From the sequence record PP047754: DNA of 64,000 nt. One strand, written 5' to 3'. This stretch comes from Escherichia phage KEP4. The notes under the pieces are model-generated. The model was not told the origin of the DNA. It worked only from the letters and a program-made list of their open reading frames with translations, and searched no databases. How positions within the stretch are numbered: the first letter of the stretch is position 1; the number at the start of each line of letters is the position of its first letter. Below, one piece after another: positions 46,111 through 50,166 of this stretch. The translations under genes and the position numbers were made by a program.

Positions 46111-47346
46111 TCAGCGCTTCAACAAAGACATGAGGTTTACACTGGTCGACTTCGGATTGTCCTCTATCTTTCGGACGGGCATTTTCAGATTAGTGTAAAC
46201 CTCAGATGGTTCCCAACGCGTACCCTGCTGTAAATGCCATATATGTAGAGGAACACCCGTCTCAAAGAACACAGGCATCTTCCACTTCTGGACGCCAGGA
46301 ACGTGCCCTGCAGGAGCTTTTTCGCACAACAGGGTATCTGGTAGCCAGAGTGAACGGGCTTCCCATAATGCCTTACAGGAGTATTCAGGCCAAATACGTT
46401 CCATATAATCGATCTCGTCCCATGTACGCTCGGCGTCCCACCCGATGTAACGGGTATTCTTCAGTCGGAAGAATTTCTTCAGCCAACAAGCACCGGAGGT
46501 CTCAAAGTTCAGACGATTGATAAACGTGATGTGGCCAAACTCTTCAACGCATTCCTGAAACGCTTTCTCAAGGTCGGTTTCGAGTATATCACATTCTTCG
46601 TCTGTAATAGGACAACCGTTGATCTTTTTCTTCCCGTGCTTGGTCACCCAGTCGTCACGGTTTGACAAGAATGCCGCGCCGTTGCGGTTGGACTCGCTGC
46701 CATCGCGGTCACGCAGCATGAACCCAGGGACGTCGATCTCCCACATGTTGCCGAATACCATGTTCAGGGCTTCCAGGAAGTTCCAGGCGCTCAGGCGGCC
46801 AAAGTATTTCCAGGACATCGCCGTGTCCCACAGATTCGTGAATTGGTGGACAGGGATATCCAATTCAAGCATCGGTCGGAATGCTTCCATCTGAGTACGC
46901 CCAGCCAGCCAATCAATGTAGGACTGAACACACGGGATCATCTTCGACTTACGGTAACGGCAATCGGTATCGAAGCGCATACGCTCAAAGTTCAGGTTGT
47001 ACCAATCAGAAAAGCGCTGCATCTCTTCTTTGGACTGAGGAGGCACAGGGAACTCACTGTAGATTGTCCATGGACCGATGGCGTTATAACAGCAGCCCCA
47101 AAGGAACGACATCCAGATCTTGCGCTCGATCTTCTCAAGCTGTGTGATGCCTTCAGTGACTTCGATCGCATAGTCCATCAGACGCATCTGCTGGTTGTGC
47201 TCTTCGGTGTAGGACAGCGCCTCCACCCAAGCCTTGAGCAGGTACATCCGATTCTCAGGCTTGCGATAGTCAACAGCCAGGTCAATCGGGTACTTCCATT
47301 CAGCCGGGGGCGCATAGCCAGTCGGCATTTTAGAAATGTTATTCAT
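46111..47346 (-). CDS. hypothetical protein (411 aa)
   Basis: Large ORF, no motif recognised. Confidence 0.55.
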   Translation of the reverse strand: MNNISKMPTGYAPPAEWKYPIDLAVDYRKPENRMYLLKAWVEALSYTEEHNQQMRLMDYAIEVTEGITQLEKIERKIWMSFLWGCCYNAIGPWTIYSEFPVPPQSKEEMQRFSDWYNLNFERMRFDTDCRYRKSKMIPCVQSYIDWLAGRTQMEAFRPMLELDIPVHQFTNLWDTAMSWKYFGRLSAWNFLEALNMVFGNMWEIDVPGFMLRDRDGSESNRNGAAFLSNRDDWVTKHGKKKINGCPITDEECDILETDLEKAFQECVEEFGHITFINRLNFETSGACWLKKFFRLKNTRYIGWDAERTWDEIDYMERIWPEYSCKALWEARSLWLPDTLLCEKAPAGHVPGVQKWKMPVFFETGVPLHIWHLQQGTRWEPSEVYTNLKMPVRKIEDNPKSTSVNLMSLLKR

Positions 47347-47528
47347 CCGATTTTACTCCCGAGTTCAACACGGAACGCCAGATAGAAGAAAGTGGCGATA
47401 GATACAGGACATATCACCAAGAATGGGCGCTGTTGCACCCCTTCTGTGACCATGACGCCGACCAGCGAAACCGTAAAGATAACGAACATCAACATCATGA
47501 AGATAAAATCAACCTGCTTGATTTTCAT
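47343..47528 (-). CDS. small membrane protein (61 aa)
   Basis: Hydrophobic throughout. Confidence 0.4.
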   Translation of the reverse strand: MKIKQVDFIFMMLMFVIFTVSLVGVMVTEGVQQRPFLVICPVSIATFFYLAFRVELGSKIG

Positions 47529-47895
47529 CTTTCACTTCCTCTACAGGAGAAACAACTTCAGGCTCAGCTTCGGGAGCCAGCTGAATTTCTTCGGGGCTTA
47601 CTACGGGCTGTCCCAGAGACCAGATAGGCAGGAAACGACGATCATTCGTCACCAACCAAATTTGCTTGGCGGTTTTCGTCTTTTCGGAAATAAAATGCTG
47701 GGCATTGACTTGGGTACGAGCCAAACCCACCTGACGCCAAGAACCGAAATCCTTAGAAGAAGGATTGGTATTCAGTTGAAATTGTGGGACGATTTTATTC
47801 TGTTCCGGATAGTAACGGACAGCGTTAATCATCTTCGCATCACCACGGTAATCAATAGCAACAGCGACAACGTTGCGTGGAATGAGGATTTTCAT
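47509..47895 (-). CDS. hypothetical protein (128 aa)
   Basis: ORF. Confidence 0.45.
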   Translation of the reverse strand: MKILIPRNVVAVAIDYRGDAKMINAVRYYPEQNKIVPQFQLNTNPSSKDFGSWRQVGLARTQVNAQHFISEKTKTAKQIWLVTNDRRFLPIWSLGQPVVSPEEIQLAPEAEPEVVSPVEEVKDENQAG

Positions 47896-47896
47896 T

Positions 47897-48100
47897 TTAA
47901 TTCCTTTTGAAACTCTGAATTATGTTATAGACGAAAGGCGTTAATAAGATAGCACCCCCCAAATAATATAACGCGTAAACGTTCAATATTTCGGTTGAAT
48001 CCAACTCAACGATGCCCAAATATTTCATGACACCGACGAGCACAGCTGTGATACACATCACCAATCCGACGAACACAAAATATTTAGACATCTGTTTCAT
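47897..48100 (-). CDS. small membrane protein (67 aa)
   Basis: Two hydrophobic helices. Confidence 0.4.
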   Translation of the reverse strand: MKQMSKYFVFVGLVMCITAVLVGVMKYLGIVELDSTEILNVYALYYLGGAILLTPFVYNIIQSFKRN

Positions 48101-48102
48101 TT

Positions 48103-49008
48103 CTAACCCTTACTCAACAGGCCGAGAAGGGATACAGAGGACTTTGTTACCTCTCCCTTGGCGCTCGCCTTGGTTTTAGATTTGGTCACCTTCTCAGGGA
48201 CTCGATGCGCTAGAGGATCATCCCCACCGACTTCGCGCGTCATTGGGTCAGTTTCACAGAATCCGTAGAAATCTTTGATGTCCAGACCCATGGCGTGAAA
48301 CTCACCACGCATTTGATGATGAATAGCGTTGCCAATCACCCACAAAGGTGCATCAAACGGCATCATGGCTAATTCGCTATCATTTCCTGTTTTGAATTCT
48401 TGAGTGTTTGTAGGCGATTGACGATACAACACGTCTTGCCCGCTGTAGTCATTGACCACCACTTCCCAACCCAGCACCAGCATTTCAGTCTTCGACTTCT
48501 CAAACTCCTTGGAGTAAGATTCGTTGCGTGACCAGCCGGAGTCCCCTGCTTCCTTACCAGAGCGACCACGGATGCGCGCATCATACTGATAGCGGTCTGG
48601 GTATGCAAAATAAAGCAACGCCAGAGATTCAATCGGATAGTTCTTGAACATCCATTCAGGACGCCATTTATCTGACAGCATGAGGGGTTCACCCTCGCAC
48701 ACCAAAGTGTAACCCTGAGCCAGCCAGCCTTTGACCAGATCACGGGCGATATCACCCGAGCCTGTGGCGGCGTGGATGGCGTCCATGGAAGTCCAGGAAG
48801 CCAGACCGGATTTGTTGGACACAGTATACTGGCCGACGAAGATTAACTTCAGCTCTTCGAATTTCAGGCCGAATGGGCGCGTCTTGTCACCAATGGTGTA
48901 GGTGAGTTCAGTAGGCTCCAGCTTAGTGCGGAGCCATTCGATGAACTGGACTACTCTCGTACCCTTGCCCACGCCACTTGTTCCTTTCACTACAATTATT
49001 TTAGCCAT
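48103..49008 (-). CDS. P-loop kinase-like protein (301 aa)
   Basis: N-terminal Walker A VVKGTSGVGKGT. Confidence 0.6.
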   Translation of the reverse strand: MAKIIVVKGTSGVGKGTRVVQFIEWLRTKLEPTELTYTIGDKTRPFGLKFEELKLIFVGQYTVSNKSGLASWTSMDAIHAATGSGDIARDLVKGWLAQGYTLVCEGEPLMLSDKWRPEWMFKNYPIESLALLYFAYPDRYQYDARIRGRSGKEAGDSGWSRNESYSKEFEKSKTEMLVLGWEVVVNDYSGQDVLYRQSPTNTQEFKTGNDSELAMMPFDAPLWVIGNAIHHQMRGEFHAMGLDIKDFYGFCETDPMTREVGGDDPLAHRVPEKVTKSKTKASAKGEVTKSSVSLLGLLSKG

Positions 49009-49349
49009 TATGCATCTTCCTCAATACGCCAGCTCACACCGCCCAACCAGGGAGACCAGAAAACAGCAACCTGTGGGCGATCGTTTTCTACAAACTTCAC
49101 TTTATACTGGTCGTCGAAGTTATAGAAAATTTCATCGTCATCTGGTGCCATACCGTTTTCTATCAGAACACGCTTTAACTCCAGCGCCGCACCAACGGAA
49201 GTGGGTGTGGTTTGTTTACGAATGAAGTTGTTCACATGGATAATAACGCCATCCATATCGCTATCACCGGAACGCTTGTCTGGGGTTTCCCCAAACTTGG
49301 ATTGTTCTTGCACGATGTCCTCCTCAATGGACGTATTGATAATGGCCAA
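49008..49349 (-). CDS. hypothetical protein (113 aa)
   Basis: ORF. Confidence 0.45.
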   Translation of the reverse strand: MAIINTSIEEDIVQEQSKFGETPDKRSGDSDMDGVIIHVNNFIRKQTTPTSVGAALELKRVLIENGMAPDDDEIFYNFDDQYKVKFVENDRPQVAVFWSPWLGGVSWRIEEDA

Positions 49350-50166
49350 TCAGGCGGTTCACCACTTCGACAATATTGCGGTTCAGGAAGTCGAAGTGGT
49401 TCTGGCCTTCGACTGGTTTAATATAAAGCATATCTTCCGAGTTCGAAAGATCCAGTTTTTCATAATTTCCCTGGGGAACAAAGATGACAAAAATATTGTT
49501 CATCGCACAGGGTTCAACGTATTTCGGGTTATCATCAATTAAAACATCACCTGCCAAAAGATGCTTTTCGTCGGTGCTGACAAACCCGTTGAAGATGCCA
49601 GGGAACTTGTCATAGACAAACTGGCGCTTGCTGCGCTCGTGTTCTGGCTCACACTTAGATACTGCGATCAATTCAACATTTTCAAAGTCTTCGAGAAGGA
49701 TCTTCTTCAGATTCACCAGGAACTCGTAAGCGCCTGGAAGCGGGTTCATCTTGGCATACAGGTCCGGCATGCGCCACCAATCCATAGGATCACGTCCTGT
49801 AGGTGAATCCATCCATTGACCAGCAACAAACACACGGCGCGTCAACCATGCTGGGTGAGCGCGTTCCCGCATGAGGATCGCCAAATCACCAGCATGAGCC
49901 ATATAGCACTCTTTGGTGATACGCTGGAAATCATTGGGATAATCATGACAACCCATGTTTTCAGCAGCAGCTTTTGAATTGGAAATATTAAACCAATCCA
50001 CCCAAGGGGAGAGGCTATCAACCAAAGTCAAGTCTACGTCTACCAGGATACGATACATTCCACCGATTTTAGAATTGGCATCATACAGACCAACATGATT
50101 ATTCATCAGACTTCTCCACTTGATCATAACCAGTTGCGGTGCATTGCTCTTCTGTGCAATCTGCAT
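49324..50166 (-). CDS. HAD-superfamily phosphatase/nucleotidase-like protein
   Basis: HAD motif I VDVDLTLVDS (DxDxT). Confidence 0.55.
   Translation of the reverse strand: MQIAQKSNAPQLVMIKWRSLMNNHVGLYDANSKIGGMYRILVDVDLTLVDSLSPWVDWFNISNSKAAAENMGCHDYPNDFQRITKECYMAHAGDLAILMRERAHPAWLTRRVFVAGQWMDSPTGRDPMDWWRMPDLYAKMNPLPGAYEFLVNLKKILLEDFENVELIAVSKCEPEHERSKRQFVYDKFPGIFNGFVSTDEKHLLAGDVLIDDNPKYVEPCAMNNIFVIFVPQGNYEKLDLSNSEDMLYIKPVEGQNHFDFLNRNIVEVVNRLIGHYQYVH

Follow-up and report, generated by a model that had tools for sequence, protein, structure and literature searches.

The genes beside the DNA polymerase gene of Escherichia phage KEP4: a predicted arm of the ViI-type thymidine hypermodification pathway with a candidate nucleotidase

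What is the function of the genes that lie next to the DNA polymerase gene of Escherichia phage KEP4? We addressed this question using a stretch of 64,000 nucleotides from sequence record PP047754, referred to here as the window, in which an earlier note had singled out three open reading frames (ORFs): a P-loop kinase-like protein (48103-49008), a HAD-family phosphatase-like protein (49324-50166), and a protein of 411 amino acids (aa) described as unknown (46111-47346). The note proposed that the three might be a post-replicative set for thymidine hypermodification, composed of a 5-hydroxymethyldeoxyuridine (5-hmdU) kinase plus a transferase, or might simply serve nucleotide salvage. All three ORFs were present on the minus strand at these coordinates, apart from the start of the HAD gene, which we place at 50106. 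They do lie downstream of a DNA polymerase gene, since a family-B, T4 gp43-like DNA polymerase (PolB; 50504-53500, minus strand; Pfam DNA_pol_B_exo1 and DNA_pol_B; phrog_262) is encoded directly upstream. Judging from orthology, it is very probable that the region is the polymerase-proximal arm of a ViI-type pathway, which would convert part of the thymidines in phage DNA to 5-(2-aminoethoxy)methyl-deoxyuridine (5-NeOmdU). This pathway has already been published (Lee et al., 2018, PNAS; Lee et al., 2021, NAR), and the hypermodification reading is thus right but not new.

The kinase-like call was borne out by a full-length family match. The 301-aa product of 48103-49008 matched the Pfam family HMUD2 (5-hmdU DNA kinase clade 2; PF18747) with an E value of 3.5e-149 and 496.4 bits (cut-off, 25), and the alignment covered residues 1-300 of 301 and profile positions 1-298 of 298. 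The Walker A motif, GTSGVGKGT, is intact at residues 9-17 (encoded at 48958-48984), and Gly-9, Ser-11, Gly-14, Lys-15, Gly-16, and Thr-17 were invariant in 17 kinase homologues with identities down to 40%. Besides, the protein was 85% identical over its full length to ViI gp243 (YP_004327565), and the gene order is shared with ViI. A phmmer search of the kinase against PDB sequences gave no match. On these sequence grounds, 48103-49008 is assigned as the gene for a 5-hmdU DNA kinase, the ortholog of ViI gp243. As for the supply of 5-hmdU, a gene for a ThyA-family dUMP hydroxymethylase is present at 4423-5463 and adjoins the gene for a clade 1 kinase, HMUD1. Longer HMUD2 homologues of 495-527 aa (P0128-P0130) were also seen, and the kinase domain matches phrog_15209 as well, a group annotated as endonuclease.

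The 411-aa protein was not unknown. It matched the Pfam family ADDT (PF18724) over residues 49-292 with an E value of 2.8e-61 and 207.7 bits (cut-off, 26.2), and it aligned without gaps to ViI gp247 (YP_004327568) over 411/411 aa at 92% identity. We assign 46111-47346 from its sequence to the amino acid:DNA transferases (AADT, formerly aGPT-Pplase2), as the ortholog of the gp247 serine:DNA transferase. The check suggested by the note, namely, comparison of the proteins with the 5-HMUDK and aGPT-Pplase families, was therefore positive for both the kinase and the 411-aa protein (Pfam HMUD2 and ADDT). Glu-282, Thr-283, and Cys-287 were invariant in six transferase homologues with identities down to 50%, and all Cys and Glu residues of gp247 are kept in the KEP4 protein; the putative catalytic segment from Glu-282 to Cys-287 is encoded at 46486-46503. 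Cys and Glu mutants of ViI gp247 lose activity (PMC8989533), and M6 gp51 likewise needs a conserved Cys and a neighboring Glu. The glycine:DNA transferases PaMx11 gp46 (PUGT) and M6 gp51 belong to the same Pfam family as the window transferase, and the same mechanism is proposed for them, in which Cys attacks C6 of 5-phosphomethyldeoxyuridine (5-PmdU), phosphate leaves, and the nucleophile adds. The invariant ETxxxC of the window transferase (Glu-282 to Cys-287) resembles VETILC247 of PUGT, and hhalign set Cys-287 on Cys-247 of PUGT. The mapping of the catalytic Cys is only suggestive, because pairwise similarity to PaMx11 gp46 was not significant by either BLASTP (E=0.59) or hhalign (E=0.46). 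The ViI-type transferase differs from the PUGT type in being about 120 aa longer, in carrying a putative docking tail (see below), and in using the serine hydroxyl, which gives an O-C bond, whereas PUGT and M6 gp51 use the glycine amine. Neither a phmmer search of the transferase against PDB sequences (no match) nor a profile built from six transferase sequences (a spurious ribosomal match only) added a relative.

The activities of the two ViI orthologs have been demonstrated, and both fit the post-replicative scheme of the note. In ViI, gp67 and gp243 act as kinases on 5-hmdU in DNA; gp247, in purified form, loads L-serine onto 5-PmdU DNA, giving O-serinyl-thymidine; and gp226, a pyridoxal phosphate (PLP) enzyme, decarboxylates O-serinyl-thymidine to 5-NeOmdU (PMC8989533). 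We found that the window encodes the whole set of dUMP hydroxymethyltransferase, 5-hmdU DNA kinases, AADT, and PLP decarboxylase. HMUD1 (3761-4423, plus strand) matched PF18748 with an E value of 4.4e-115 and was 97% identical to ViI gp67. It is followed on the same strand by the thymidylate-synthase-family dUMP hydroxymethyltransferase, predicted to form 5-hmdUMP (4423-5463; Pfam Thymidylat_synt, E=2e-15; 93% identity to ViI orf00066), whose role is described in PMC5889632, by a deoxynucleoside monophosphate (dNMP) kinase (5445-6029; phrog_139), and by a dimeric-type dUTPase-family pyrophosphatase (6026-6580; Pfam dUTPase_2); the last two genes are the nucleotide-supply arm. The PLP-dependent decarboxylase (57192-58385, minus strand) is 93% identical to YP_004327553 and is the predicted ortholog of gp226; its match to Pfam PALP, at 31.4 bits, lies under the 35-bit cut-off. 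A tblastn search of the 64-kb window for an ortholog of ViI gp160 (Pfam HMUDK_hel type) gave no match; in ViI this gene lies at 87.4-88.7 kb, beyond the span of the window.

Following the steps shown for the ViI orthologs, the pathway in KEP4 would begin with hydroxymethylation of dUMP by the ThyA-like enzyme (4423-5463), after which 5-hmdU would enter phage DNA. For this step we further suppose that the phage dNMP kinase (5445-6029) and host enzymes would make the triphosphate and that PolB would incorporate it. HMUD1 and HMUD2, with ATP, would then convert 5-hmdU in DNA to 5-PmdU. In the third step, the transferase would exchange the phosphate for the side-chain oxygen of L-serine to form O-serinyl-thymidine, by a proposed route through a Cys-C6 adduct and an exocyclic methylene intermediate, and in the fourth the PLP enzyme would yield 5-NeOmdU by decarboxylation. 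One consideration tempers this conclusion: the modification in KEP4 itself is something that we infer from orthology.

The relationship to ViI is close. The segment 46000-50500 was 100% identical to the Kuttervirus phages SFP10, GG32, STP07, S117, and kage, and 277 phage records match it; the source phage is a Kuttervirus, that is, a ViI-like member of the Ackermannviridae. The gene string is the same as in the annotated record of kage, and the ViI reference genome has the same order (polymerase orf00236, orf00237, orf00239, orf00240, orf00243, orf00244, orf00245, and orf00247). Thus, KEP4 and ViI (Vi01) share genus, gene order, and proteins, with 85-97% identity for the five components in the window, and nothing substantive differs, the published pathway being without the HAD gene. 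According to PMC5889632, 5-NeOmdU makes up about 40% of thymidine in ViI, CBA120, CBA6, and 1.255.O, and SFP10 is named there among the ViI-like phages encoding 5-HMUDK. In phiHS2, 5-NeOmdU has been measured, and the modification amounts to 16%; a 2024 review and a 2026 preprint both present the pathway as characteristic of the family. The practical value of these assignments lies in correcting annotations to 5-hmdU DNA kinases and serine:DNA transferase. Among existing records (ViI Vi01_061c and Vi01_196, PaMx11 gp49, and many RefSeq entries), HMUD1 is called "terminase small subunit", HMUD2 "guanylate kinase", and the transferase "hypothetical protein".

Beyond the known pathway, we observed that its DNA-level enzymes share a short peptide with the polymerase, which is a new observation. 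The C-terminal tail of PolB is RRVNLLSMMGKKG (encoded at 50507-50545), that of HMUD2 is SSVSLLGLLSKG (48106-48141), and that of the transferase is TSVNLMSLLKR (46114-46146), while the PLP decarboxylase has KSVSLAGLLSG in an internal loop (57498-57530). ViI gp160 carries GSVNLLDRLKKPE near its C terminus, with the peptide GSVNLLDRLKK. A regex scan found the peptide at the C terminus of 4 of the 463 ORFs of the window, one of them encoding a 69-aa Cys-rich (CxC...CPCC) protein (12053-12262, plus strand; phrog_4789) that ends in KGKINLLNMMRK; its ViI ortholog, orf00053, ends in ...KVNLLSLMRK, and the protein could be a small clamp-binding factor. In a scan of the whole ViI genome there were five matches, against 0.57 expected from shuffles. 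A DNA-level repeat at the 3' ends of genes was considered and rejected, because the codons differ by gene (GTT AAT CTG TTG; GTA AAC CTC ATG; GTA TCC CTT CTC) and conservation is therefore at the peptide level. The ViI gp33- and gp55-like proteins, ligase, RNase H, primase, and helicases lack the peptide, and in the decarboxylase it was never C-terminal but confined to the internal loop. The accessible ViI literature makes no mention of a shared C-terminal peptide or of a clamp.

The tail of PolB aligns with the C terminus of T4 gp43, ...EEKASLDFLFG, and T4 gp55 ends in ...SLDFLYEAND; we take these T4 tails to be the gp45 clamp-binding peptide. The sliding clamp gp45 of T4 and RB69 reportedly binds a peptide that is common to its clients. 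T4 thus resembles the ViI-type phages in having the polymerase-tail peptide on other proteins of the same phage. The difference is that in ViI-type phages the peptide stands on thymidine-hypermodification enzymes, and its docking to a clamp is predicted from sequence. A precedent for a clamp-binding, post-replicative enzyme of DNA hypermodification is T4 alpha-glucosyltransferase, which binds gp45, and in T4 the levels of alpha- versus beta-glucosylation depended mainly on factors other than the clamp interaction (PMC13216743).

We compared the peptide among the related loci L005-L009 and L012-L038. In the enterobacterial and Serratia lineages, PolB, HMUD2, and the transferase carry the type [NS][LVI][LM]x[LM][LM]. 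The C-terminal type in a Vibrio-type locus (L007) is [KR][KR]LW for PolB, HMUD2, the transferase, and the gp160-type protein alike, and the loop of the decarboxylase there is KTRRLF. The L008 tails are ...RKLF on PolB and ...RKLW on HMUD2, that locus having yielded neither a transferase gene nor one of gp160 type, and the enzyme tails of L009 and L038 are RB69-like (...NVFDLF and ...SVLDLF). The type of peptide therefore switches by lineage, and in most lineages all carriers switch together. Strict covariation of the enzyme tails with PolB was also considered; it fails in L035-L037, where PolB keeps the VNVLKFF type and the enzymes end in KKLW, and this mismatch is evidence against a simple model of one motif and one pocket. 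HMUD1 and the HAD protein were without the peptide in every lineage compared. Weighing the sequence pattern and the analogy with T4, we tentatively suggest, somewhat short of calling it probable, that HMUD2, the transferase, gp160, and the PLP decarboxylase are sliding-clamp clients and that hypermodification is coupled to replication. If true, the docking peptide would explain the rapid modification of only part of the thymidines (about 40% in ViI) on nascent DNA, and also why the phage keeps two kinases.

What, then, is the role of the third protein, encoded between the polymerase and the kinase? The HAD phosphatase-like call was upheld by conserved motifs and by a match to Pfam NT5C (PF06941) above the cut-off (32.7 bits versus 24.8), which is partial and covers residues 130-223 of the long ORF; the NT5C family is also precomputed for most of the homologues. 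Like the HMUD2 and ADDT matches, this one lies well outside chance. The product is most likely 260 aa in length rather than the 280 aa implied by a start at 50166, because the ATG at 50106 has a GGAG ribosome-binding site, which the ATG at 50166 lacks, and because 21/21 HAD homologues begin at the MNN of 50106. Asp-23, Asp-25, Thr-27, Lys-160, Asp-191, and Asp-192 were invariant, and position 150 was Ser or Thr, in 22 sequences with identities down to 43%. These residues belong to DVDLT (residues 23-27, encoded at 50026-50040), to Ser-150 and Lys-160, and to the Asp pair at 191-192; LIDDNPK is encoded at 49522-49542. The closest PDB sequence matches were 5'(3')-deoxyribonucleotidases. An AlphaFold model built on the 22-sequence alignment had a mean predicted local distance difference test score (pLDDT) of 87.5 and a predicted template modeling score (pTM) of 0.84, and it was used in place of a single-sequence model, which was discarded (pLDDT, 31.6). 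In this model a large insertion between motifs I and II forms a cap, with an extra beta-hairpin predicted at residues 89-102. Foldseek placed human mitochondrial deoxyribonucleotidase (1q92) first, together with 3bwv, and also returned 6g2l and 4l6a, all of them deoxyribonucleotidases.

In the HAD superfamily, a capped (C1-type) active site goes with small-molecule substrates and not with DNA. By sequence and model, we class the protein encoded at 49324-50106 among the NT5C-type deoxyribonucleotidases that are capped and act on small molecules; its catalytic motifs are intact. It has in common with the human mitochondrial and cytosolic deoxyribonucleotidases (mdN and cdN, NT5C) and with the Staphylococcus epidermidis protein 3bwv the HAD core, the position of the C1-type cap, and the motifs (Foldseek E value, about 3e-7; TM score, 0.80 normalized to 3bwv). 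Identity to these human and 3bwv proteins is only 16-18%, and the phage protein differs from them in about 60 extra cap residues and in a family-specific, invariant loop, C152-x-P-E-H156, between motifs II and III. The CxPEH loop and the enlarged cap could alter its specificity.

Our inference for the HAD protein is a soluble nucleotidase of pyrimidine dNMPs, possibly a dTMPase, by which the balance of dTTP to 5-hmdUTP is tuned. Such an enzyme would shape the pyrimidine dNMP pool, for example, by hydrolysis of dTMP, and would help to set the share of 5-hmdU in DNA. Nucleotidases acting on dTMP have been described for Bacillus phages with hydroxymethyluracil- and uracil-containing DNA. The protein is a candidate regulator of the ratio of thymidine to 5-hmdU, for which a control is missing; this ratio sets how well the DNA resists restriction enzymes. 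The link to the pathway is suggested solely by the conserved gene neighborhood: in each of the 33 related loci that we examined, the HAD gene shares the strand of HMUD2 and lies upstream of it at a distance of no more than 1 kb. The HAD gene was lacking in L040 and L041, which are the most distant loci, and a search of the literature for any nucleotidase or phosphatase connected with 5-NeOmdU or with phages that contain hydroxymethyluracil found nothing useful.

Several points weigh against a part for the HAD protein in the pathway. It is not among the five proteins sufficient for reconstitution in vitro in lysate (PMC5889632), and the three purified enzymes that suffice for the DNA-level steps do not include it. 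About 60% of thymidine is unmodified in ViI, so that any exclusion of dTMP is incomplete. Moreover, the HAD gene was confined to Ackermannviridae-like loci, so that descent of the gene order, instead of a functional link, could explain its conserved position. The strongest competing explanation holds that the protein is a general deoxyribonucleotidase of the core genome, serving, for example, the recycling of nucleotides from host DNA, and that its place by HMUD2 is inherited and has no functional tie to hypermodification. Genes of NT5C type are indeed found in many phages (phrog_2643), and the protein is dispensable in the in vitro pathway. Against inherited order alone speaks the persistence of the adjacency where the upstream neighbor differs, as in L009, with a topoisomerase gene upstream instead, and in L038 (PolB was not found in either fetched locus). 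It also survives in distant lineages with HAD identities of 32-35%, and in L036 and L037 the gap to HMUD2 is 1 nucleotide. We consider a core-genome enzyme of this kind quite possible, though not the likelier case.

A DNA-acting role is unlikely. In such a role the HAD protein would act as a phosphatase on 5-PmdU in DNA, undoing the kinase step and thereby curbing or proofreading how much of the DNA is modified or in which pattern, an idea that suits both the place of its gene immediately upstream of the DNA kinase gene in every related locus and the partial modification seen in phages (about 40% in ViI and 16% in phiHS2). The large C1-type cap over the active site in the model and the nearest structures, which are mononucleotidases, argue against it, as does the lack of a docking peptide in every lineage, unlike the four DNA-level enzymes. 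Besides, the accessible portion of the ViI literature mentions no residual 5-hmdU peak for ViI DNA.

Nucleotide salvage, the second option of the note, fared differently for its parts: for the kinase and the 411-aa protein neither salvage nor RNA repair is supported, whereas for the HAD protein nucleotide metabolism is the best reading. Taken for the cluster as a whole, with the kinase a guanylate or dNMP kinase, the HAD protein a nucleotidase, and no role at the DNA level, salvage is very improbable. It draws on the NT5C likeness of the HAD protein and on the label "guanylate kinase" that RefSeq and phrog_4409 give to the kinase, but that label is an annotation transfer, the specific family being HMUD2, and gp243 acts on 5-hmdU in DNA; in addition, a separate dNMP kinase is encoded at 5445-6029, and the neighboring 411-aa DNA transferase consumes the product of the kinase. 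T4 Pnk combines the P-loop kinase and HAD phosphatase folds. It is scarcely credible that the KEP4 kinase and HAD protein are a similar polynucleotide kinase (PNK)-type pair for the repair of nucleic acid ends that counters host nicking of tRNA or RNA, a reading invited by a P-loop kinase and a DxDxT HAD phosphatase encoded close together on one strand, because the kinase is an end-to-end HMUD2 match with no PNK family match and a ViI ortholog that phosphorylates the 5-hydroxymethyl group of hmdU in DNA, the HAD protein is of the capped NT5C type and not of the capless type that acts on polymer ends, and the genes are two separate ones with no RNA ligase nearby.

Returning to the reading in which the enzymes are clamp clients, we can join it to that of the HAD protein: the tailed enzymes would work at the clamp, HMUD1, which has no tail, would be a distributive back-up, and the HAD protein, equally tail-less, would set the ratio of 5-hmdU to thymidine as a nucleotidase directed at dTMP. 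This combined scheme is plausible, although we stop a little below rating it as probable. The proposed contrast between tail-less HMUD1 and the tailed enzymes mirrors that in T4 between beta-glucosyltransferase, which does not bind the clamp, and alpha-glucosyltransferase, which does.

The remaining genes of the cluster are small, and all lie on the minus strand. Between PolB and the HAD gene is a gene for a DUF7292 putative lipoprotein (50099-50443; Pfam PF23964, E=2.9e-53), which is annotated in kage and heads the presumed transcription unit. After the HAD gene (49324-50106) comes a DUF7254 protein (49008-49313; Pfam PF23912, E=3e-50), whose gene has a GTG start with a GAGGAGG ribosome-binding site. 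The DUF7254 protein contains no cysteine, though some records name it a putative thioredoxin, and its gene also directly follows the HAD gene in two divergent relatives, L005 and L006. HMUD2 (48103-49008) is followed by a predicted membrane protein of 67 aa (47897-48100; phrog_4514), a 128-aa protein (47509-47895; phrog_4163, E=5.6e-77) for which a Pfam scan gave no match, and a 61-aa membrane protein (47343-47528; phrog_7943). The transferase (46111-47346) and a 55-aa membrane protein (45907-46074; phrog_3879) complete the string. A promoter-like site found by a promoter scan (50507-50478) and a strong terminator-like hairpin found by a terminator scan after the 55-aa gene (45881-45846; 16-bp stem) bracket the genes for DUF7292, HAD, DUF7254, HMUD2, the three small ORFs, the transferase, and the 55-aa protein. 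Going by these consensus matches only, the genes from 50443 to 45907 are probably one transcription unit. The counts of hits speak for caution, being slightly above expectation (17 promoter hits versus 13.1 in shuffled sequence and 12 terminator hits versus 7.7).

Two further genes of the window deserve mention. A phage ACT-like domain protein (6580-7110, plus strand; PF24021, E=9e-89) is encoded directly after the genes for the hydroxymethylase, the dNMP kinase, and the dUTPase, and it may regulate the nucleotide arm by sensing a small molecule. A PP-loop ATPase (24730-25392, minus strand) gave weak matches to QueC, ThiI, and tRNA_Me_trans and is called "QueC-like" in the ViI annotation.

In related loci, the module is invaded by homing endonucleases: in L005, a GIY-YIG gene (9089-9769 of that locus) lies between the DUF7254 and HMUD2 genes, and in L008, a NUMOD3 endonuclease gene (5478-6215) interrupts the gene for the polymerase. 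In T4 (L042, 24000-42000), the beta-glucosyltransferase gene and the dCMP hydroxymethylase gene 42 adjoin the polymerase gene 43, in a layout parallel to that of KEP4.

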